Assembly: GCA_048881705.1 (NCBI GenBank) | Contig: JBHLSH010000015.1 | Span: 1-54,762, forward strand | Source of the DNA: Candidatus Heimdallarchaeota archaeon | GTDB taxonomy: Archaea > Asgardarchaeota > Heimdallarchaeia > Hodarchaeales > Hodarchaeaceae | Direction of reading: 5' to 3' | Length of the DNA: 54,762 nucleotides | In this document: positions 946 through 11,946 of the stretch, piece by piece | Layout: the number at the start of each line of letters is the position of its first letter | Position numbering within the stretch: position 1 is the first letter of the stretch | Position numbers and translations under genes: made by a program | The notes under the pieces: generated by a model | Told to the model about the DNA's origin: nothing | The model's input: the letters and a program-made list of their open reading frames with translations, nothing else | The model's database searches: none

Positions 946-1707
946 CTACTCATATAGGAACTGGATTGTTTTTTGTTCGGAACCATCTGCCCAAAAGGCC
1001 TTTTTCGTGAGTACCATGATTTTCATGAGCTCCCTTATGTCGCGCGGGGGGAGATTTGACCATGATTGTTTCATCTTGACGATATCAAACGCGGTGACCA
1101 TGTCATACCCGTTTTGAAAGGCATAATTGAATAAATCTTCAGCGTAGCTTTGGAGTGTTTTCCAATACACACGCAAACGATTCTTTTGGTCATCCCACCA
1201 TTTGGCTTTTCCTTTCTCAATTAAAAAATCAGAAATTAGGATCAACTGTTGAGTAGTGAGCTTTTTACGCAAGACAGGATTATGAAAAGGGTAGACCAGA
1301 CTGATCTCTTGCAGATCAATGACATGTATATTTAGAAGCCTGGCAAAATCAAAAAGGAAATCCCCCCAGGTTAACAACCATTGTTGCCTGAGTTGAGGAT
1401 CCTCAGGAACCATCCACCGCCAAGGCTTTTGTACCCAAGGCGGTAGAATAGGTTTAATTCGCGGGTCTACAGTTCCCGGACTCAACTTCAATGAGCTGGC
1501 GCGTTTAACCGAAGTTTGAGTTTGTGGGGCCTCTGTTTGAGTAGGTTGCGGAATCCGTGGTTTGGGCGTAGGAGATTTAACTTTCGGAGCGGGAGGAGAA
1601 GTTTTGGCGGCTTGGGACTGAGTAACCTGATCGAGGACATTTTCAAGCACATCAACTGAATCCCGATCCTGTTTTTTCTTAGGACGTTTGCGCTGCATCT
1701 CAGCCAT
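946..1707 (-). CDS. vps25: ESCRT-II subunit Vps25-like with Pro/Lys/Thr-rich N-terminal extension
   Basis: PPW...RQQWLLTWGDFL, PFHN...RKKL, GKAKW...LRVYWKT resemble eukaryotic Vps25 tandem winged helices; lies in the ESCRT cluster. Confidence 0.88.
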   Translation of the reverse strand: MAEMQRKRPKKKQDRDSVDVLENVLDQVTQSQAAKTSPPAPKVKSPTPKPRIPQPTQTEAPQTQTSVKRASSLKLSPGTVDPRIKPILPPWVQKPWRWMVPEDPQLRQQWLLTWGDFLFDFARLLNIHVIDLQEISLVYPFHNPVLRKKLTTQQLILISDFLIEKGKAKWWDDQKNRLRVYWKTLQSYAEDLFNYAFQNGYDMVTAFDIVKMKQSWSNLPPRDIRELMKIMVLTKKAFWADGSEQKTIQFLYE

Positions 1708-1765: not shown

Positions 1766-2911
1766 CTAGCCTCCAAATTGGTCTCTCCATTCTTCAAATC
1801 GAGAAAGCTCCTTAGGGGAGACGGAGGGTTTGATGTGCTCCATACTAGATAGGAAATCGTTTGTATCGGGATTACGCGGTCTAATTTCGCGGTTTTTTAA
1901 GGCCCCGTCGGCATCCAGCTCTCGAATGGGGATCATCAAGGCTTCTCGGCATAGTAAGGCAATATCAGCAGCGGTATACCCCGCTGTATATTTTGCCATC
2001 TCCATGAAACTGAGATCAGGATCGAGTTCTACCCCACGTGTATGAATTTCAAACATCTTTTCACGAGCTGCAGTGGTAGGCAATGTCACATAAACACGCC
2101 GTTCAAAGCGCCGACGCATGGCTGCGTCAATGTCCCAGGGAGTGTTTGTGGCACCGATGGTTACTAGCAGCTCGTCTCCCGTTCCAAATCCCTCAACAGC
2201 TTGGAGAAGCTGGGTTTTGATCCGCCTCATAGCTTCATTTTCCGTCCCGCCTCCTCGTCTCCCCCCCAAGGCATCTATTTCATCAAAGAAAATGATTGAG
2301 GGAGCCTCCTCGGCCGCGCGATCATATAGTTCTTGTACCAGCTTTTCTGATTCTCCCAACCATTTCGACACCAGACTAGCCGCTGAAACTGAAAAAAAAG
2401 TAGAGTCCACTTCCGAGGCCACCGCCTTGCAAAGATAAGTTTTACCACAGCCAGGAGGTCCAAACATTAGAATCCCTCGCCAAGGACGTCTTGCACCTTT
2501 AAAAAGGTCAGGACGAGACATAGGAAGGATAATAGCCTCACGCAGAGTTCTTTTCGCCCCTTCCATCCCAGCAACATCTTCCCACTTAACATTCGGTTTT
2601 TCACGAACGATAACACTAGAAATAGCGCCAGAAATTTCATCTTCTTGCTCTCGTGGAGCACCTCGGGTTGAAGAGGAAGATTTACTCTCTGAAGGTTCTA
2701 TAATTCCACGGATTTCCTTGACACGAAAAATGTACTCCATTGCCTTGCGATAATACAATTCTTTCATATTTGGGTCATCTGTGAAATTAATAAGCTTTTG
2801 TAGTTGCTCTGCAGCGTTCACGTAATGACGAACTGCCTGATGGGATTGACCACTTTGATCCAACTGATAGGCACGAGCCGCGTTCTTTTTGGCCTGTTCA
2901 AATAGACTCAT
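1766..2911 (-). CDS. vps4: Vps4 AAA+ ATPase (MIT + AAA)
   Basis: N-terminal MIT (AARAYQLDQSG...Y..AAE.L), Walker A GPPGCGKT, pore loop SKWLGESEK, Walker B IIFFDEID, RRRFERR. Start likely ATG 2911 (MSLFEQ). Confidence 0.96.
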   Translation of the reverse strand: MSLFEQAKKNAARAYQLDQSGQSHQAVRHYVNAAEQLQKLINFTDDPNMKELYYRKAMEYIFRVKEIRGIIEPSESKSSSSTRGAPREQEDEISGAISSVIVREKPNVKWEDVAGMEGAKRTLREAIILPMSRPDLFKGARRPWRGILMFGPPGCGKTYLCKAVASEVDSTFFSVSAASLVSKWLGESEKLVQELYDRAAEEAPSIIFFDEIDALGGRRGGGTENEAMRRIKTQLLQAVEGFGTGDELLVTIGATNTPWDIDAAMRRRFERRVYVTLPTTAAREKMFEIHTRGVELDPDLSFMEMAKYTAGYTAADIALLCREALMIPIRELDADGALKNREIRPRNPDTNDFLSSMEHIKPSVSPKELSRFEEWRDQFGG

Positions 2912-2974
2912 AGTGAGGACACCAATGATTGAAACTGGAATGGGAGCCAATGAAGGAGAGGGGAAAGAGAGGAA

Positions 2975-3589
2975 TTAGCTTTTCTTGATTTTCTCTAGCT
3001 CTTTTTGAAGCTCCTGTGACCGAATATCGGGCGAGGGAAGCCCAAAATCTGCCGCTGCAGCTTTGGAAGCACTAATTTCTCCAATTATTTTGTCTACCAT
3101 TTCGTCTTCTTCGACATCAGAGGTCATAAGATCAAAACCTTCATCCATTGCCTCGGTAGCTAGATCTATACGTTCTGTTTCAATTTCCATCTGATTTAGC
3201 ACTCCCTCCAACTGCGGAATTCTTAGCTGCGCGTTCATTGAGTGTAAAGTTCTAACTAATCCCTTTAAATCTTGGCCAATCGCTTGAGTCGCTGCTGCTT
3301 GTTCCAGCTTGAATTTAATCCCTTTAACCCGGCTAGCCATTTGCTGGCAGCCCCGGGCCATGGCCCGATTTTTCGCAACGTCCTTGGCTAGGAGGCGGGC
3401 AGTAGAAACGTCGCCATCTTCAATGGAACGTTCTACTTCCTTCATCATCCGCTTTTCCTCTTTGATCAGCTTGCTACGCTGACGAAGCATTCGTTTTTCG
3501 ACCATACGGAGGCGGACAATCCATTTACGTGTTGCCTGTGCTTGATTACCTCCACCCTTAAGCCAGTTACCGAACTTGTCAAATACCAT
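2975..3589 (-). CDS. ESCRT-III subunit, Vps2/24/46 (CHMP1-3) class
   Basis: Basic N-half/acidic C-half helical Snf7 fold; ARLLAKDVAK, QLEGVLNQME; C-terminal MIM1-like ELQKELEKIK; directly upstream of vps4. Confidence 0.92.
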   Translation of the reverse strand: MVFDKFGNWLKGGGNQAQATRKWIVRLRMVEKRMLRQRSKLIKEEKRMMKEVERSIEDGDVSTARLLAKDVAKNRAMARGCQQMASRVKGIKFKLEQAAATQAIGQDLKGLVRTLHSMNAQLRIPQLEGVLNQMEIETERIDLATEAMDEGFDLMTSDVEEDEMVDKIIGEISASKAAAADFGLPSPDIRSQELQKELEKIKKS

Positions 3590-3593
3590 CGGT

Positions 3594-4265
3594 TTAGGAC
3601 CTCAATCCTTCTTCAATTTGTTTTCGCATTTCATCAAGCTTCTTTTTGTCCGCTTCGCGGCTGGTTGTGGTGCCTTCTTCGGTTTGAGCGGAAACCATAT
3701 CTGGGGAGGAGGATACAGGAGTATCGGCTGCTGGAACCCCAGAGGCAAGTTCGGCCTCGAGTTCTGCCATTTGTTGAGAGATCCGATCATCAGCCTCTAC
3801 ATCCATACCAATTTCTGTAATGGTTGTGTCCGTAAGGGCATCTTCCATGTCAGCTACCATTTCCATCGAACTCTCTAGGCCCATCATAACTTCTTCAGTT
3901 CGCTCGGGAGAGGCCGATGCTATGTTTGAATCGATCGCAGTTTGTGCGGATGCTAAAGTCTCCGTTAATGCTACGTTATCAGCAGAGATATCCAGAGTAT
4001 CTATTGTACGTTGAAGATTAGCAATTTTAGAGTGAGTCCGAGTCACCTGGGTGAGGTATAGTTCTCTCCGTTTCAAGGCCTCATGAGCCCCAGGCTTGTT
4101 TCCCGCTTTTAACAGGGTACGAGCCAGCTCATACTGCTCATCTGCTTGCCGCTGATAGTTGCGTATCTTTAATTCCATCTGATTGATAGTACGTTTGAGC
4201 TTTGCCTTGGTTTCAGTCGATGAACTCGGTTTGTTCTTCGTTAAAAACCCTCTTAGGCGTTTCAA
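3594..4265 (-). CDS. ESCRT-III subunit, Vps20/32/60 (Snf7/CHMP4-6) class
   Basis: K..A..ALKRR.LY..Q pattern (GNKPGAHEALKRRELYLTQ), acidic C-half; TTG start, N-terminal amphipathic KRLRGFL. Confidence 0.92.
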   Translation of the reverse strand: MKRLRGFLTKNKPSSSTETKAKLKRTINQMELKIRNYQRQADEQYELARTLLKAGNKPGAHEALKRRELYLTQVTRTHSKIANLQRTIDTLDISADNVALTETLASAQTAIDSNIASASPERTEEVMMGLESSMEMVADMEDALTDTTITEIGMDVEADDRISQQMAELEAELASGVPAADTPVSSSPDMVSAQTEEGTTTSREADKKKLDEMRKQIEEGLRS

Positions 4266-4497: not shown

Positions 4498-5214
4498 TTA
4501 CATACCGGGAAATGATAAGATTACCCCATCTAATGTCTCGGAGCGTATTACAATTTTTTTCTGGATTAATGGTGACAAGGTTTGATCGATGCGCTCAATA
4601 CTCCATCCTGTTTCTTTGATCAAGTCTGTAAGATTTATCTCCCCATTATATCGAGCCGCTAGGTTTAGGATTGTATGATGGTCTTGGCTAAGATTTGGAT
4701 CAATGAACTCAACTACTTGCATTCCACCTAGCTCTCGAATATTATGAACCAGTCCATTAGAGACAAGAAGATCTAATGCCTGCGAAATATCAGAAATAGC
4801 AACCGTTATGCCTTGACTCTCATCATTTAGTTTTAGGATAATCTCAGTGGTACTTAGAAGTCCACCGGTCCTGTTTCGTTCATTTTTTCCGATTTCCAAA
4901 ATTCGCAATGCAAGGAAGTTCAGGTATTCATCCTTTCCCTTTAAACGTTGAATGAACGAGGGTTTTTCACCTACTTCATAAATTCCGATGGCCCGGGGAA
5001 GTCCTAGTTCCTCCCGTAGATTCATGAGTTGTTTACTCAAAGCAGGATTCTTTTTAAAATCAGTTTCATACTTCTTTTCAAGATCTTGGAGATCTCTATG
5101 TAGAGAATGAACCTGCTGGCTCATTTTCTCGAGAGATTTTAAGGCCATCTCGGCTCCTTTCCTTTTCATCTCTGTTTCGCGAAGGAGCTTTTCTTCAATT
5201 CGTCTTAGACCCAT
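4498..5214 (-). CDS. vps22: ESCRT-II subunit Vps22/36-like (EAP30 domain)
   Basis: Aligns by eye with Snf8/Vps22 (KKNP.L..Q, LALRILEI...RTGGLL, DH.TILNLA...G.I, TGWSIERIDQTL..LIQK). Start likely ATG 5214 (MGLRRI); no GLUE domain. Confidence 0.9.
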   Translation of the reverse strand: MGLRRIEEKLLRETEMKRKGAEMALKSLEKMSQQVHSLHRDLQDLEKKYETDFKKNPALSKQLMNLREELGLPRAIGIYEVGEKPSFIQRLKGKDEYLNFLALRILEIGKNERNRTGGLLSTTEIILKLNDESQGITVAISDISQALDLLVSNGLVHNIRELGGMQVVEFIDPNLSQDHHTILNLAARYNGEINLTDLIKETGWSIERIDQTLSPLIQKKIVIRSETLDGVILSFPGM

Positions 5215-5415
5215 CAAAATGCACCCGCTATAAAATTCAGTTAAATCGTGTTTTATTACTCTGATCACAGGCAATAAATACTCAAGTTGATCGACTTAAA
5301 ATGTTTTAGAAACAATAACCAACAGAGGATCATGACATGTCCGAAGTTTCTTCCTTTTTAAGGGAGGCTTAGTGGAGGAAGTCTGGATCGCTATACACAG
5401 GCCTGGTTCTCGAGA

Positions 5416-6762
5416 ATGTCATCCTCTTCTAATGAGCTTTTTTGTTCTTTTTGTGGGGTCCAGATCCAGAAGGGGAAGGGGTATAAGTGCCAAGAGTGTC
5501 AAGCAATTTTCTGTGCATTGTGTGGAGTCAAACGAGGAAACCAAGGTTTGCTTATAACGTGTAAGTGTGGTTCAGGTATTGTTAACAGGGAAGAATCCAA
5601 TTTAGATCTGAAAACTGAACTTTTAGAGCATTTATTCGCTTTGAAGAAGGCGTTAAAGCAGGTAGCATACCGACCTGTCGTCCTCTTAAAGAGATTAGGT
5701 CATTTAGAGTCACAGCTACGTCCCTTGACGACAAAATTCTTAATTCCAATAGAACAGATAGACCGCATGTTCTCTGACACCAAGGAGATTGAGGAATTTA
5801 TTCTAGAGGAATTTAAGGAGTTTTCAACCAAACTTCATCGATATTATCAAAATATCAATGAGGTAAAGGGGATCGCTAGTAGTTCTTCCGATCTTGCCCT
5901 ACAGTTAACCCTTTTTCAAAAACAGGTCCAAACGTTTGATCAAACCGTTCAAATGAGACTTCGGTCAATAGAGGACCTCCTAGATGACTTATTTTCCGAA
6001 TACACCGCTATTCATGAGATGGAAACGGAATTACGCCAATTTTCAGATGTTACTGGATTTGGACCAGGAGAGCTAGGGATCAGTCTGTTCCCAAAGGTTG
6101 AACTAAACGGTGAAAGTGTTCGTAAGACAAGCGTAAATATGCTGATCACTACCAACCGTATTCTATTCCTGCAAAAGAAAAGGAAAAACGTATTAGGCTG
6201 TGAATTTGTCCTATATGACGAATTTGGCACTGGTGATCTTGTCGATGTAAAAATTGTTGAGGAAGGCTTTCTTAAACGTCGCAAATTAATAATCCAAGCT
6301 ATGAAACGGGAGTATGGGCTATACTCGGATAACGGTACACTAGATCAAATTGTAAAAAGTCTCCAGATAGGTTATTACGGAGAACCTAACAATAATTATA
6401 CGCATAAACCGCTCCGAGATTGGTCTTCTGAGGTGTATCAGGAGGAAATTCTTTCAGCCTTAAACTTCTCAATGAATCCAAAGGAAGATCATGCAATGCT
6501 TGATTCTACTTCCCCATTATTTCCTGAAAGAACACCCAATTACGTTTCAGAAGTGGTAGATGAGCACCTTCGTGATCTTCGTGTCCAAAAAATGGCAACG
6601 ATAAAAGCCTTGGAAGAACTCAAGACTGGAGGTCGTAAAGTAACCAATCGAGATTATTTTGATCTAGTAAAGCAATTTGAACTTGACTTAGCCAAAATCA
6701 ATGAAAAGATAACAGATCTATTGGTGCGATCCGGAAGAACAAACTTATATGATTATTTCTAA
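5416..6762 (+). CDS. Multidomain ESCRT-associated protein: 8-Cys FYVE-like Zn finger, coiled coil, PH/GRAM/GLUE-like domain, C-terminal steadiness-box-like hairpin
   Basis: C10-x2-C13-x11-C25-x2-C28-x4-C33-x2-C36-x12-C49-x-C51; MLITTNRILF...DLVDVKIVEEGFLKRRKLII; ATIKALEELKTGG..V...DYFDLVKQ. CDS certain; domain calls by eye. Confidence 0.6.
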   Translation: MSSSSNELFCSFCGVQIQKGKGYKCQECQAIFCALCGVKRGNQGLLITCKCGSGIVNREESNLDLKTELLEHLFALKKALKQVAYRPVVLLKRLGHLESQLRPLTTKFLIPIEQIDRMFSDTKEIEEFILEEFKEFSTKLHRYYQNINEVKGIASSSSDLALQLTLFQKQVQTFDQTVQMRLRSIEDLLDDLFSEYTAIHEMETELRQFSDVTGFGPGELGISLFPKVELNGESVRKTSVNMLITTNRILFLQKKRKNVLGCEFVLYDEFGTGDLVDVKIVEEGFLKRRKLIIQAMKREYGLYSDNGTLDQIVKSLQIGYYGEPNNNYTHKPLRDWSSEVYQEEILSALNFSMNPKEDHAMLDSTSPLFPERTPNYVSEVVDEHLRDLRVQKMATIKALEELKTGGRKVTNRDYFDLVKQFELDLAKINEKITDLLVRSGRTNLYDYF

Positions 6763-6785: not shown

Positions 6786-7409
6786 TTAAAGATTCCTAAG
6801 TTCGCGACGAAAATCCGAGAGCCAACGTGCCACTTGAAGCTCTAATTTTTCGAGTTCATCTTTTTTCAATAGAACTCCGGCTTTTTGATTGTCCATCCAT
6901 GCAATCCATTCTGTAATATCCTTGCTTACCCAATGATCTTCGCCATAGATGGCGGAACTCAATAAAATGGCATGTAATTCATCCAAATATGGAAGAATGC
7001 GATCTACGGTAGCAATAGCCTCCAATCTAAGCAAATCCAGCAGCTCAATTGCGTGTGCCACAAATTCGGCCACTTGTGACGGGAGTTGCGTTATGCGTTG
7101 GTAATCAATGCGGTTTTGAACCATATCATCCGTACCTTCGGTTCTACGAAGTTTTTCTAATCCGAAAGGATATAACTGGTCAACCTGCTCTTCCTTAATG
7201 AAAGCGTCCAGGTCAAAGTGATATGGTTCAAGAGAAGCCCTAACCTCCACAATTGTCGTTAACAAACTTTTATACTGTTTGTGAAAAATATTTGGCTCTA
7301 TTTCTCCTCGTTCGTAAGTTCGGGATAAGAGGTCAAGGGTACTTATACAGGCAAATAGCCGCCCCTCCAAATCCCACCTTTGAGATAGAGTGGATGGAAA
7401 TGTTATCAC
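6786..7409 (-). CDS. vps28: ESCRT-I subunit Vps28
   Basis: LFACISTLDLLSRTYERGEI, VAEFVAHAIELLDLLRL, ILPYLDEL, W...M....L match Vps28 N- and C-terminal domains. Confidence 0.9.
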   Translation of the reverse strand: MITFPSTLSQRWDLEGRLFACISTLDLLSRTYERGEIEPNIFHKQYKSLLTTIVEVRASLEPYHFDLDAFIKEEQVDQLYPFGLEKLRRTEGTDDMVQNRIDYQRITQLPSQVAEFVAHAIELLDLLRLEAIATVDRILPYLDELHAILLSSAIYGEDHWVSKDITEWIAWMDNQKAGVLLKKDELEKLELQVARWLSDFRRELRNL

Positions 7410-7415
7410 TTTTGA

Positions 7416-8159
7416 TCAGCTCAGATACTCTAGTTGTTTTCTAACGACATAGAGTTCCTTCATGTATTGACGAAACAGTCGTGAATACTCAAAAATGGAA
7501 ATATCTCCGCGAGAATAGCGGTCTTCTAAAGAGGACAGTAATTCCGAGATTGCGAGACGTTCTGACTCTAGGCTTTCTCTTTCAGAGAGAGATGTGGATC
7601 TAGAGAACTCTGGAGAACTAGCTTGAACAGTTTGTTGGGCTCTCAATCGAGAAAGCTCTTCTTCTTTTTCCTGAAGTTGATCCGACAAGCTATTCAGTTC
7701 TGTTCGAAGAACCCGAGTCTCTACAGACTCTTGCTGCGCGGGGGTGGCGGGAGTTATCGGGGCTAATCTAGCCATTGTTTCTCTTACAGTTTTAGCATCT
7801 TTAGCTGCTTCACCCTTAGGTCTGGGAGGAACTCGCGACATGAGATTTTTGAGTGCGATTATTACCTGGTATAGGTGAAATTCGGCTCGCCAGTTATCCA
7901 AGATGCGTAGCTGAACAAAACCATCTTCATCCACATTGGGATGATCCATAAATCCTGGTGCAGTAACCACGGGAGGAACATTCGGGTAATATTCTGGCAG
8001 AAAAATTTCAAACACGAAGCGCGCCCGCCCTTGACTTGTTGTGTATGTCAAGGTGCCTTGCCACCTGTCTAAAGTATCGCCTACAGGATCAAAACCGGCT
8101 GCAGCAGAATTAGAATATACAAGCTGGGCTTCCCTTGCTAGAATAAAGTCACGATCCAT
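7416..8159 (-). CDS. vps23: ESCRT-I UEV-Vps23/TSG101-like protein
   Basis: UBC fold (FEIFLPEYYPNVPP, HPNVDEDGFVQL with catalytic Cys replaced by Gln), Pro-rich linker, coiled coil, steadiness box LEDRYSRGDISIFEYSRLFRQY. Confidence 0.9.
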   Translation of the reverse strand: MDRDFILAREAQLVYSNSAAAGFDPVGDTLDRWQGTLTYTTSQGRARFVFEIFLPEYYPNVPPVVTAPGFMDHPNVDEDGFVQLRILDNWRAEFHLYQVIIALKNLMSRVPPRPKGEAAKDAKTVRETMARLAPITPATPAQQESVETRVLRTELNSLSDQLQEKEEELSRLRAQQTVQASSPEFSRSTSLSERESLESERLAISELLSSLEDRYSRGDISIFEYSRLFRQYMKELYVVRKQLEYLS

Positions 8160-8232: not shown

Positions 8233-8249
8233 GAAAGACTCGGCCTTTC
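8233..8249. promoter_or_regulatory. Candidate palindromic operator GAAAG-N7-CTTTC upstream of vps23-vps28
   Basis: gaaag actcggc ctttc(ta); same arms and spacing as at 11926-11942 upstream of ubiquitin. Confidence 0.35.
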
Positions 8250-8320: not shown

Positions 8321-9550
8321 TTAGAATTTTGCTGATGCAAAAAAGTCCATAATGGCCTCTCCAAGCAATTCAAAGGCAGTTTCAATATTGTTCCCCGTTT
8401 TTGCGCTAGTAGGAAGATAATGTATACGAAACCCTCTATGTTGCCTAGATATCTGTGATAGACGACTAACAAAGATTTGAGCCTTATTGTCCTCCACAGT
8501 CAGCGTTTCACCAGAACGTAAATCAGCCTTATTACCTAAAACGATTATTGGAACAGGCCCCCTACCATTATTCTTCCATAGTTCATTCATCCAGGCAACA
8601 ACATTTTGGAAGGATTCCAAACGAGTTACGTCAAAAACAACAAGGGCCCCGACTGCATTATTATAGTAAGCCTTTCGGACGACATCAAATCGGGGTTGTC
8701 CCGCTAAATCCCAGATGACAAATTTGATTTGTTTTCCCCCCGGATATATTGTTGATGAACTCTTAGTGGCCAAATCTGCCCCAATGGTCATTTGGTAGTC
8801 TTCTTGGAATCCCTCGCCAAGATATTGTCGCCTAATTGATGTTTTGCCGACAGCTCCATCTCCTGCCAAGACGATCTTGACTGCATAATGCTCTCGAACA
8901 AAGGATGCTTTTGTAGCTTCAATTATTCGATCGACGGCCTCACGAAACGGAGGACTCGACTCTGGTGTTTGATTCGGATACTCCCGGATAAGGTGACTCA
9001 GATCAACCGCGAGAGCTCCAACTTGATCTCGTTGAACCCCCCTCGAAGTTACAACTGCAATGATGTAGGCATCTTCTACCACGAAAAACTGAATGGTCTG
9101 GCTTTCCAAAGCCAGAACCTCGAGTAGTTCTCCCAGCTTATATTGAACGTAGTTTTTGATGGTATTGAGAATGAACGAGAGAGAAGTTTCAAGATCCTTG
9201 GACTCGGCCAAGCGATATGTAAAGAGAGGGTAGCCGCTCTTTCGGAAGCAGGAGATTAAGAAAATATCCTCGGTCTGTGCGGGTCGCTTTTCTAAGCCAA
9301 AACGGAGAAAATCATCTGAATCTTTGGATTCTAAAGAATAGGCTTGCTCAAGTATGCTCATATAATCAGTTTTACCTGATAGGGCTTCTTCAAGATCGCC
9401 TTTTACTTTAAGATGAAATTCTTCAATATCCTTTGCAGCCGCATTGTCTGTCAACTTTGCTGCTAGATCAGTATAATCTATGTCCCGTTTTTGCGGCTGA
9501 ATCGATTTTTCTTCGGATTCACCTTGAGGAGAAGAATTTTCGTTAGCCAT
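8321..9550 (-). CDS. Longin(-like) domain + Rab-like small GTPase fusion
   Basis: G1 GDGAVGKT, G2 TIGAD, G3 WDLAGQ, G4 NKAD, G5 SAK, preceded by a longin/roadblock-type alpha/beta domain (IFLISCFRKSGYPLFTY...IQFFVVEDAYIIAVV). Start set to ATG 9550 (MANENS) because the longer ORF overlaps the divergent gene. Confidence 0.88.
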   Translation of the reverse strand: MANENSSPQGESEEKSIQPQKRDIDYTDLAAKLTDNAAAKDIEEFHLKVKGDLEEALSGKTDYMSILEQAYSLESKDSDDFLRFGLEKRPAQTEDIFLISCFRKSGYPLFTYRLAESKDLETSLSFILNTIKNYVQYKLGELLEVLALESQTIQFFVVEDAYIIAVVTSRGVQRDQVGALAVDLSHLIREYPNQTPESSPPFREAVDRIIEATKASFVREHYAVKIVLAGDGAVGKTSIRRQYLGEGFQEDYQMTIGADLATKSSSTIYPGGKQIKFVIWDLAGQPRFDVVRKAYYNNAVGALVVFDVTRLESFQNVVAWMNELWKNNGRGPVPIIVLGNKADLRSGETLTVEDNKAQIFVSRLSQISRQHRGFRIHYLPTSAKTGNNIETAFELLGEAIMDFFASAKF

Positions 9551-9742
9551 TGGATGAATGGGCTCCGAATGGTATCTGGATAACGATATAATTACAGAAA
9601 AGGAATAATTACATCCTCTCTGGAAAAACCCTTGTCTTAAAAACCTTAAAAGGGTTTGTTTAAAAAATGCAAAAAACGATATTAAACGGCATTCAGTGAG
9701 TAGCGAAACGCTTTGTATAAGCGGCCATTCTGAGGTAACTTC

Positions 9743-10498
9743 ATGTCCGAGGCCGAGTCGATCGTTTGCCCAAATTGTGGAGAGCGAAGTCCCGCAGGGT
9801 ATGTACTCTGTCCGTACTGTGGATTTGATCTCACGAAAATTGTACGAGAAGCTCATCGCGTTCGAGTCACGTTTCGAGAACGGTTTAGCCGGATCTGGCG
9901 AAGTTTTTCTGATCCTAGGCTGAGCGAAACCCTGTTCACAGAGATTGGAGTCAATCCTGATCGTCTTGGCGCGATTATGGTTCTGTATCTTGTTTCGGCA
10001 GCTTATGCCCTACGGATGGGAGCCTTTGTCATCAAGGCAAGCACCCCAGGTTGGCATGATTTAGCTCTTTGGTTTTTTATTATTGGCCCATGGATTGTCG
10101 GTCTTGGATTCATCGCCTTTGCGTTATTTGGCTGGGTGGTAAGTGGTATTGTCGTCTGGTTAAGTGCAAAAACACTAGGTGGAAAAGCCAGTTTAAGAGA
10201 TACAATGGGTATTGTTGGATATTCCTTTGGTCCACTGATTCCGGCATCCTTTTTAGTAAGTCTATTAATCATAATCCTAGGAACAGGAGCTCCTTTAGGT
10301 TCTCCCATAACTTCAATATCACCCTTAACTAGCGAAAATTATGTCATTTTTGAATATCTCTATATCCCCTTTTTTGGATGGACAGCGTACCACTGTGGGA
10401 ACGGCATCCGTGCCGCTCACTTACTCAGTAATCTGTACAGTTATGCCATTAGCGGACTTGTTACTGCTGTCTATGTGATTCTATATTTTTTCCTCTAA
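9743..10498 (+). CDS. Zinc-ribbon + Yip1-domain multi-pass membrane protein
   Basis: CPNC-x10-CPYC ribbon; about 5 TM segments with LSAKTLGGKASLRDTMGIVGYSFGP, a Yip1/DUF1282 signature. Confidence 0.75.
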   Translation: MSEAESIVCPNCGERSPAGYVLCPYCGFDLTKIVREAHRVRVTFRERFSRIWRSFSDPRLSETLFTEIGVNPDRLGAIMVLYLVSAAYALRMGAFVIKASTPGWHDLALWFFIIGPWIVGLGFIAFALFGWVVSGIVVWLSAKTLGGKASLRDTMGIVGYSFGPLIPASFLVSLLIIILGTGAPLGSPITSISPLTSENYVIFEYLYIPFFGWTAYHCGNGIRAAHLLSNLYSYAISGLVTAVYVILYFFL

Positions 10499-11901: not shown

Positions 11902-11946
11902 ACCGGAAACTCCGGTTTATCCTATGAAAGCCAATGGCTTTCTAGG
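11902..11946. promoter_or_regulatory. Two inverted repeats between a TATA-like element and the ubiquitin start
   Basis: accgga-aac-tccggt (11902-11916) and ccta(t)gaaagcca-a-tggctttctagg (11921-11946); ttttaaaaag at 11947-11956. Confidence 0.45.

Follow-up and report, generated by a model that had tools for sequence, protein, structure and literature searches.

A Hodarchaeales protein with a zinc finger, a PH domain and a steadiness-box-like hairpin, encoded amid ESCRT genes, is a candidate ESCRT adaptor

[quoted passage not shown] At the center of this cluster, positions 5416 to 6762 encode a protein with an N-terminal zinc finger, a bundle of long helices, a PH-fold domain, and a C-terminal helical hairpin resembling the steadiness box of ESCRT-I subunits. 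Sequence homology places this protein in the Asgard Znr_CC_PH_SB family (asCOG cog.011556), as the short form found in Hodarchaeales; the assignment was made through its homologues rather than through the asCOG profile itself. We consider it probable, at moderate confidence, that the protein is an ESCRT accessory subunit or adaptor whose hairpin sits on the Vps23/Vps28 headpiece, while its PH domain and finger recognize a membrane, ubiquitin, or a partner. An earlier sequence-only reading of the window had put the protein forward as an unrecognized third headpiece subunit carrying FYVE- and GLUE-like lipid-binding modules, which eukaryotes would later have distributed over ESCRT-0, -I, and -II. 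The observations behind that reading were confirmed and its interpretation is partly supported, but the idea is not novel: a family of the same architecture was published by Makarova, Tobiasson, Wolf, Koonin et al. in 2024 (mBio; PMC10936438).

No organisms known are more closely related to eukaryotes than the Asgard archaea. Their ESCRT-I apparently lacks Vps37, and their ESCRT-II is without the GLUE domain by which Vps36 binds membranes and ubiquitin. A steadiness box, a PH domain, and a zinc finger united in one protein could fill both gaps, and such a protein would reveal how archaeal ESCRT finds its membranes and cargo. The adaptor idea is already known as a prediction (PMC10936438); added here is a compact version of the protein at the center of the ESCRT cluster in Hodarchaeales, which at present is the order thought to stand closest to eukaryotes.

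Conservation of the gene and of its position

A collection of 5.8 billion proteins yielded 13 close homologues, named Hodarchaeota, Heimdallarchaeota, or Thorarchaeota. The last label, under which the closest relatives were deposited (L001, JBHLRO010000011.1; P0002; P0042; all 'Candidatus Thorarchaeota archaeon'), is probably a taxonomic mislabel, since all other close relatives are Hodarchaeales; these closest relatives are 93% identical to the window protein and have an identical gene order. In a hidden Markov model (HMM) scan, 20 of the 21 genomes of the same GTDB family carried the gene, with E values below 1e-160. Comparison with the 93%-identical orthologue of L001 showed 86 synonymous and 32 nonsynonymous codon differences, and third positions held 93 of the 131 base differences. 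We conclude that 5416-6762 is a real gene under purifying selection. Among sequencing runs, those listed for the locus were DNA metagenomes, with no RNA run among them. The C-terminal hairpin was the best-conserved part, with a mean identity of 66% versus 31 to 48% for other parts of the protein.

As the sequence-only reading had stated, the gene is divergent from its Vps22-like neighbor, across a gap of 141 bp, and convergent on vps28, across a gap of 23 bp (Table 1). We compared 19 Hodarchaeales loci from species-representative genomes and found the order Vps22/gene/Vps28/Vps23 in all 19 wherever the contig extends that far. The full order Vps25-Vps4-Snf7-Snf7-Vps22/gene/Vps28-Vps23-GTPase was maintained across these loci, with the Ras/Rab-like GTPase in its place in 17 of 19. 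The Vps22-like neighbor was correctly described as lacking GLUE: only EAP30 was found in it, and the Pfam GLUE model (Vps36_ESCRT-II) matched nothing anywhere in the genome at E values up to 10. The genome-wide best match to Vps23_core, itself weak, fell at 7440-7571, inside the UEV-Vps23 gene.

Table 1. Parts of the gene at 5416-6762 and its neighbors in the window
Feature	Position	Strand	Basis
Whole gene, 448 aa: zinc finger, helical bundle, PH, steadiness-box-like hairpin	5416-6762	+	Open reading frame, translation
Zinc finger at the N terminus, residues 1-62, with eight Cys (5443-5568)	5416-5601	+	Conserved Cys, AlphaFold2
Three long helices ('coiled-coil', CC, part), residues 65-104, 112-149, 154-209	5608-6042	+	AlphaFold2, pLDDT about 80-90
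PH-fold domain, PH-GRAM/GLUE-like, residues about 213-325	6052-6390	+	VIA-align, AlphaFold2
Short helix (339-349) and low-confidence, length-variable linker (about 352-375)	6391-6540	+	AlphaFold2
C-terminal helical hairpin 376-403/411-438, steadiness-box-like	6541-6729	+	AlphaFold2
Vps25 (ESCRT-II)	946-1707	-	Pfam ESCRT-II
Vps4	1766-2950	-	Pfam AAA/MIT/Vps4_C
Two Snf7/ESCRT-III genes	2975-3589, 3594-4265	-	Pfam Snf7
EAP30/Vps22-like ESCRT-II gene, without GLUE	4498-5274	-	Pfam EAP30, E 5e-18, residues 32-244 of 258
Vps28 (ESCRT-I)	6786-7409	-	Pfam VPS28, E 4.5e-13
UEV-Vps23 (ESCRT-I); has a steadiness box of its own at the C terminus	7416-8159	-	Pfam UQ_con/UEV
Ras/Rab-like GTPase, 511 aa, long N-terminal extension	8321-9856	-	Pfam Ras, E 2e-39, residues 327-502
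Yip1 protein	9743-10498	+	Pfam

The window has exactly two copies of the palindrome GAAAG-N7-CTTTC (8233-8249 and 11926-11942), whereas shuffled sequences gave an expectation of 0.15 and reached two copies in 1 of 100 shuffles. One copy lies upstream of vps23, and the other presumably lies upstream of a ubiquitin gene; the region upstream of the 5416-6762 gene does not contain the palindrome.

Predicted fold of the protein

Pfam returned nothing significant for the 448-residue protein, whether it was searched whole or as four pieces. The whole protein was modeled with AlphaFold2 from a 12-sequence alignment (mean predicted local distance difference test score [pLDDT] of 69), and its parts were compared with 48,161 PDB representatives by VIA-align and with known structures by Foldseek. 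The order that had been read from the sequence, a finger followed by a long helical region, a PH-like domain, and a steadiness-box-like hairpin, was borne out by the model.

The middle domain has a PH fold: residues ∼209 to 325 superposed on many PH domains with Z scores of 10 to 11.7 and a root mean square deviation (rmsd) of 2.2 to 3.0 Å over 92 to 110 residues. In the model, seven strands are closed by a C-terminal helix (residues 221 to 321). The matches include the GRAM-PH domain of MTMR2 (Z 11.6) and the GLUE domain of EAP45 (2dx5_A; Z 10.7, rmsd 2.6 Å, 95 residues), the latter being one among many equal PH matches. The sequence-only reading had likened this region to the split PH of Vps36 GLUE. 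The PH fold stands, and the domain may be called PH-GRAM/GLUE-like, but it is continuous rather than split and GLUE is not singled out by structure or matched by Pfam. Residues E219, L220, T245, and R248 are conserved at 90% or above across the Asgard-wide family described below; R248 and R288 are its conserved basic residues.

The eight cysteines of the finger (residues 10, 13, 25, 28, 33, 36, 49, and 51) are spaced CxxC-x11-CxxC-x4-CxxC-x12-CxC; among 14 orthologues seven are invariant and C36 is nearly so. In the complete Hodarchaeales genome CP070760 (L010 8001-8183), the third pair reads C-Q-Y-H and not C-x-x-C, so that the second cysteine of the pair is swapped for histidine. The whole-protein model shows a small finger at residues 1 to 58; when folded in isolation, the finger reached a pLDDT of 79, and the third cysteine pair is predicted to stand at the start of a short helix. 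By VIA-align its nearest structures were ZZ domains (Ada2, Z 5.5; p62, Z 5.1; Nbr1 and HERC2), with RING, U-box, and B-box domains ranking after them, all at Z scores of 4 to 6, and its structural neighbors in the ESM Atlas belonged to B-box, ZZ, or RING families. An ESM Atlas feature search gave no usable match for either end of the protein, and among PDB sequences neither phmmer nor profile searches brought up more than weak cross-brace-finger rows. The leading Foldseek rows were of FYVE type (Rim2, EEA1, RUFY1, and Hrs), but with E values of 0.09 or worse.

The sequence-only reading had called this finger FYVE-like while noting that it lacks the RRHHCR pocket. All three motifs by which FYVE domains bind phosphatidylinositol 3-phosphate (PI3P), WxxD, (R/K)(R/K)HHCR, and RVC, are indeed absent, the third cysteine being preceded by KGYKCQEC, and FYVE was not among the 16 weak Pfam families found for residues 1 to 65 at E values up to 10. 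The RING-type ligand patterns C3HC4 and C3H2C3 are absent as well. Since the PI3P motifs are missing and the nearest structures are ZZ, RING, and B-box domains, we assign the finger tentatively to the cross-brace class, which includes FYVE, and not to the FYVE domains proper. Both its spacing and its secondary structure agree with a cross-brace, and it is probably binuclear, with the ligand pairing predicted on a model that is free of zinc.

The three helices that follow the finger matched 5j0l_A, a designed bundle of helices, over 128 residues (Z 10.7) and also aligned, loosely, with the DH domains of DH-PH guanine nucleotide exchange factors (GEFs). With the helical part searched jointly with the PH domain, DH-PH RhoGEFs led the whole-model Foldseek matches (E 8e-6), but the alignments had an rmsd of 8 to 20 Å (near 19 Å in Foldseek), template-modeling (TM) scores of 0.2 to 0.33, and 7 to 13% identity. 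On account of this poor superposition, we do not count the protein among the DH-PH GEFs, and because of the high rmsd and low TM score we take these matches to reflect a PH domain that continues from a long helix rather than a DH fold.

Beyond the PH domain, the model falls below a pLDDT of 50 over residues 352 to 382, in a linker that is more than 100 residues longer in some relatives. The hairpin that ends the protein carries the turn motif G-x-x-V-x3-DYF-x-L-V-K-Q-F, which parallels motifs of the neighboring Vps23 (G-D-I-S-I-F-E-Y-S-R-L-F-R-Q-Y) and Vps28 (G-E-I-E-x3-F-H-K-Q-Y).

Membership in an Asgard-wide family

HMMER searches of 1.84 billion representatives gave ten matches in all, down to 22% identity, and all ten share the domain layout. 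In the HMM scan, which covered 400 Asgard genomes, weaker matches (E 1e-15 to 1e-4) were found in many other families, in reading frames of about 500 to 560 residues from genomes named Thorarchaeota, Helarchaeota, and Gerdarchaeota/Heimdallarchaeota. These long forms have 12 cysteines, a helical region, a GRAM-type strand motif (in one member, G-T-L-Y-V-T-N-K-R-I-V-F-L), and a hairpin at the C terminus. When the Hodarchaeales alignment was set in hhalign against an alignment of six longer Asgard homologues, of which one matches Thorarchaeota proteins and others bear Heimdall-/Gerd- or Helarchaeota names, the probability was 98.8% and the E value 4.7e-17 over 310 columns, extending from the last cysteine pairs through the PH domain.

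Pfam scans of 79 individual family members, with E values up to 1 admitted, gave matches that were sub-threshold but recurrent and consistent in position. For the PH domain families, these were bPH_3 in 51 of the 79 members (best E 4.2e-4), GRAM in 24 (6.9e-4), and Vps36 GLUE in 16 (1.1e-3). Among zinc finger families, zf-B_box was matched by 35 members (1.9e-5), the ANCHR-like B-box by 16 (1.3e-5), and FYVE by 6 (3.2e-3); the first zinc module of one member (P0057, 25.2 bits) reached the B-box cut-off. For steadiness boxes, Vps23_core was matched by 13 members (1e-4) and Mod_r, the Vps37 family, by 9 (1.4e-3); the three Vps23_core matches inspected lay at the C-terminal hairpin. In addition, a profile of non-Hodarchaeales C termini matched the steadiness box of the window's Vps23 in hhalign (E 8e-5).

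These counts also bear on two further readings of the protein. That the protein is a true FYVE-plus-GLUE protein, binding PI3P-like lipids in the manner of ESCRT-0 and Vps36 and ancestral to those eukaryotic modules, we regard as extremely unlikely. The FYVE-like cross-brace spacing, the FYVE-type rows that lead the Foldseek list, the sub-threshold GLUE and FYVE matches of relatives, and the position of the gene behind lipid-related genes in two lineages (see below) would all fit such a protein; the absence of the PI3P motifs, the want of any Pfam match to FYVE in the protein or to GLUE in the genome, the VIA-align ranking of ZZ and RING domains first, and a PH domain in which GLUE is undistinguished from other PH domains argue against it. 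The B-box count, well above that for FYVE, likewise tells against the FYVE-like label, of which the cross-brace class is the part that stands.

A finger, a coiled coil, and a C-terminal domain in that order recall TRIM proteins, and the protein might then belong to the ubiquitin system as an E3-like ligase or as a ubiquitin or degron receptor. In keeping with this are the B-box and ANCHR-like B-box matches of relatives, a finger closest to ZZ domains of readers of degrons or ubiquitin-related signals (p62, Nbr1, and HERC2) and to RING/U-box domains, and the ubiquitin, E1, and RING E3 genes that we take to lie in the same supercluster. We nevertheless find this very unlikely: B-boxes alone rarely possess ligase activity, the finger has no RING-type ligand pattern and Z scores of only 4 to 6, and the steadiness-box-like hairpin and ESCRT neighbors would be left unexplained.

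A probable place on the ESCRT-I headpiece

In the mechanism that we favor, the steadiness-box-like hairpin would dock onto the ESCRT-I headpiece formed by the UEV-Vps23 and Vps28 hairpins, occupying the position that Vps37 fills in eukaryotes. We infer that the PH-GRAM/GLUE-like domain and the cross-brace finger, borne on the three-helix stalk, would recognize ubiquitin, a lipid of the membrane, or a partner bound to the membrane. An extra headpiece subunit is plausible because the domain order is right, the Vps22 of the cluster has no GLUE, and the homologues are linked to ESCRT genes. Furthermore, Hatano et al. (2022; PMC9192718) did not find Vps37 in Asgards, and the complex that they reported for Odinarchaeota holds Vps23 and Vps28 at 2:1, which leaves the headpiece with a third position for another hairpin to occupy.

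Further observations favor this placement, among them the constant position of the gene between Vps22 and Vps28/Vps23 in Hodarchaeales, the strong conservation of the hairpin, and the Vps23_core and Mod_r matches of relatives' hairpins. In family f4 (G011-G041), Vps28 lies within a frame of roughly 470 to 490 residues in all 31 genomes, which seems to be the fusion of UEV-Vps23 and Vps28 reported for Heimdall AB_125, and the HMM scan detected the homologue in none of these 31 genomes. By contrast, Vps23 and Vps28 are separate in the window's own family, where the gene is nearly universal. Linkage to ESCRT genes was also found beyond this genome, as the sequence-only reading required. In Thorarchaeota (f31), the homologue is convergent on an Snf7 gene and adjoins Vps4-Vps25-Vps22 in 5 of 5 loci, and three or four further families place it beside ESCRT-III, Vps4, Vps25, or Vps22 genes: it is convergent on two Snf7 genes in f12 (3 of 3 loci), and Snf7 genes adjoin it in f13 (2 of 2) and at the one f30 locus.

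Several points weigh against the headpiece. Outside Hodarchaeales, the linkage is more to ESCRT-III, Vps4, and ESCRT-II genes than to Vps23 and Vps28, and several lineages link the gene to GTPase or lipid genes instead. In eukaryotic Vps23 and Vps37, a stalk helix continues directly into the steadiness box; here there is no contiguous stalk helix because the PH domain and a disordered linker intervene. A helical hairpin is a common structure, and the ESM Atlas neighbors of this one were generic hairpins. The sequence-only reading had named it a steadiness box, and although the hairpin itself is predicted and relatives match Vps23_core and Mod_r, the window protein's own hairpin had no significant sequence match to Vps23_core, Mod_r, the neighboring Vps23 steadiness box, or Vps28. 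Searched alone, it matched neither Pfam family even at E values up to 10; genome-wide, Vps23_core found Vps23 and Vps28 only, and the Mod_r matches fell elsewhere in the genome. The hhalign comparisons of the Hodarchaeales hairpin with the Vps23 steadiness box, the N termini of Vps28 and Vps22, and the non-Hodarchaeales hairpins were likewise not significant, in alignments so shallow that even the Vps23 steadiness box against the Vps28 N terminus yielded only E 3e-3. Finally, we found no experiment on the Znr_CC_PH_SB family in the papers searched, and Makarova et al. (PMC10936438) described steadiness-box-like parts in Asgard Vps22 and Vps25, so that the partner of the hairpin need not be ESCRT-I.

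This last point leads to a different ESCRT-linked adaptor, one that is not a headpiece subunit and whose hairpin would bind the steadiness-box-like N-terminal part of Vps22 or Vps25, or else ESCRT-III or Vps4, nucleating or targeting ESCRT-III directly. Such a role would suit the Snf7 and Vps4-Vps25-Vps22 neighbors seen outside Hodarchaeales and the 141-bp intergenic region that the window gene shares with Vps22, and a free steadiness-box protein of Lokiarchaeota interacts with Vps22 in a yeast two-hybrid assay (Hatano et al., PMC9192718). On the other hand, the hairpins of relatives match Vps23_core, Mod_r, and the window's Vps23 steadiness box, the Hodarchaeales gene is just as close to Vps28, and the hhalign match of the hairpin to the Vps22 N terminus was not significant (E 0.027, probability 1.8%). 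We judge this alternative rather unlikely and retain the Vps23/Vps28 headpiece as the probable site.

GTPase and lipid neighborhoods in other lineages

Elsewhere, the homologue keeps different company. In family f7, which bears Gerdarchaeota and Heimdallarchaeota names, a 574-residue Ras-family gene is divergent upstream and an Arf-like gene lies directly downstream in 6 of 6 loci (L053, L054, and L066-L069), with no ESCRT gene near the homologue in any of the six. A Ras gene is immediately downstream at the f6 locus (L055), and at the f17 and f29 loci (L058 and L060) a Roadblock-Ras fusion lies two genes upstream (f17, genome G127) or ∼4 kb upstream (f29). In the window, the Rab-like GTPase (8321-9856) is two genes past the 5416-6762 gene. 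Because Ras-family genes number 30 to 80 per genome, or ∼1% of genes by estimate, the repeated adjacency looks nonrandom; it was noticed post hoc, in related genomes that are not independent. At the G127 locus (L058 10762-12543), a Ribophorin I-like gene, for an oligosaccharyltransferase subunit (Pfam E 1.8e-8), is directly downstream of the homologue.

These neighborhoods raise the possibility of a small-GTPase effector or regulator, in which the PH domain, the finger-helix module, or both would bind a GTP-bound Rab- or Arf-like protein and the switch would recruit the protein, and with it ESCRT via the hairpin, to a membrane. The PH matches do include GTPase-binding domains (Exo84-RalA, ARHGAP21-Arf1, and Ran-binding domains), the nonsignificant Foldseek rows of the finger include the Rab-effector FYVE-type Rim2, rabphilin, and melanophilin, and DH-PH GEFs head the whole-model Foldseek list. 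As noted above, however, the DH-PH alignments reflect long helices followed by a PH domain. The protein has no sequence similarity to GEFs, GTPase-activating proteins, or known effector families, and the Thorarchaeota, f12, f13, and f30 loci have no GTPase neighbor. A GTPase effector is therefore unlikely in our estimate.

Lipid-related genes form a second set of neighbors. At the f12 loci (L056 11139-12754, L057 7215-8897, and L070 6176-7788), the homologue is on the same strand as, and directly downstream of, genes for a UbiA prenyltransferase and a metallophosphoesterase, which are fused in L057. In Helarchaeota (f17, genome G128; L052 10505-12306), it likewise lies on the same strand as, and directly downstream of, genes for myo-inositol-1-phosphate synthase and a metallophosphoesterase. 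Such adjacency may hint at a connection between the PH domain and inositol lipids. The GTPase- or lipid-gene neighborhoods, found where the gene is away from ESCRT genes, may be a new observation.

Since the neighborhoods are complementary, with ESCRT genes in some lineages and Ras/Arf-like or UbiA, metallophosphoesterase, and inositol-phosphate-synthase genes in others, the family could be a switch-controlled bridge between GTPases and ESCRT. Its PH domain, its finger-helix part, or both would read either a Rab/Arf-like GTPase or an inositol lipid that the neighboring genes help to make, and its hairpin would bring in ESCRT-I. We regard this reading as unlikely. If true, ESCRT recruitment guided by GTPases and lipids would have an archaeal forerunner in this bridge, and the Vps37 hairpin as well as the PH-plus-zinc-finger module of Vps36 might derive from the family.

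Comparison with known systems

The leading whole-model rows in both Foldseek and VIA-align were DH-PH proteins (Dbl-family RhoGEFs) and BAR-PH proteins, in which, as here, a long helix leads directly into a PH domain; unlike a DH domain of ∼200 residues, the three helices here span ∼145 residues and have no sequence similarity to it. With FYVE (ESCRT-0 Vps27/Hrs), B-box, ZZ, RING, and PHD domains, the finger shares eight zinc ligands in a spacing compatible with a cross-brace. It differs from FYVE in lacking all three PI3P motifs, and ZZ, RING, and B-box domains are equally close or closer.

The resemblance to Vps36/EAP45 GLUE and to GRAM-type PH domains lies in the PH fold and in a strand of the relatives, G-x-L-x-hydrophobic-T-x-x-R-hydrophobic-x-F, that gives the sub-threshold GLUE and GRAM matches; yeast Vps36 also combines its PH domain with zinc fingers. 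Here, however, the domain is on a separate gene, with neither EAP30 winged helices nor a split by an NZF insertion, and it has no match at the level of sequence models, GLUE being no closer in structure than dozens of other PH domains. Like Vps37 (Mod_r) and Vps23/TSG101 (Vps23_core), the window protein has a hairpin with a glycine-containing turn and an aromatic-rich second helix; unlike them, it carries a zinc finger and a PH domain, and it has no UEV.

The closest known system is Znr_CC_PH_SB itself, also written Znr_PH_CC_SB, an Asgard-specific family in which, according to Makarova et al. (PMC10936438), three Zn ribbons are combined with a PH domain, a coiled coil, and a steadiness box. 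They inferred that it is a likely ESCRT-I component, with a PH domain expected to be membrane associated by analogy with Vps36, and a 2023 preprint treated cog.011556 as a steadiness-box family. In the part of Table S2 of PMC10936438 available to us, no entry for cog.011556 appears under Heimdall LC_3 ('Hodarchaeota'), which has two 'uncharacterized' reading frames (cog.010525, 259 aa, and cog.007998, 198 aa) in convergent orientation to Vps28 and E2/Vps23; the only cog.011556 member listed there is that of Lokiarchaeum GC14_75. The Hodarchaeales short form may thus not be filed under that cog. The window protein and the published family agree in order, from a zinc-binding N terminus through a coiled-coil or helical region and a PH domain to a C-terminal steadiness box, in the window protein a steadiness-box-like hairpin; both are found only in Asgards and encoded with ESCRT genes, and the same role, in ESCRT-I and with a membrane-binding PH domain, has been proposed for both. 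They differ in size, at 448 residues in the Hodarchaeales form and about 500 to 650 in other lineages, and since its eight cysteines would make two zinc sites where three Zn ribbons were described, the Hodarchaeales form appears to be a reduced version of this family.

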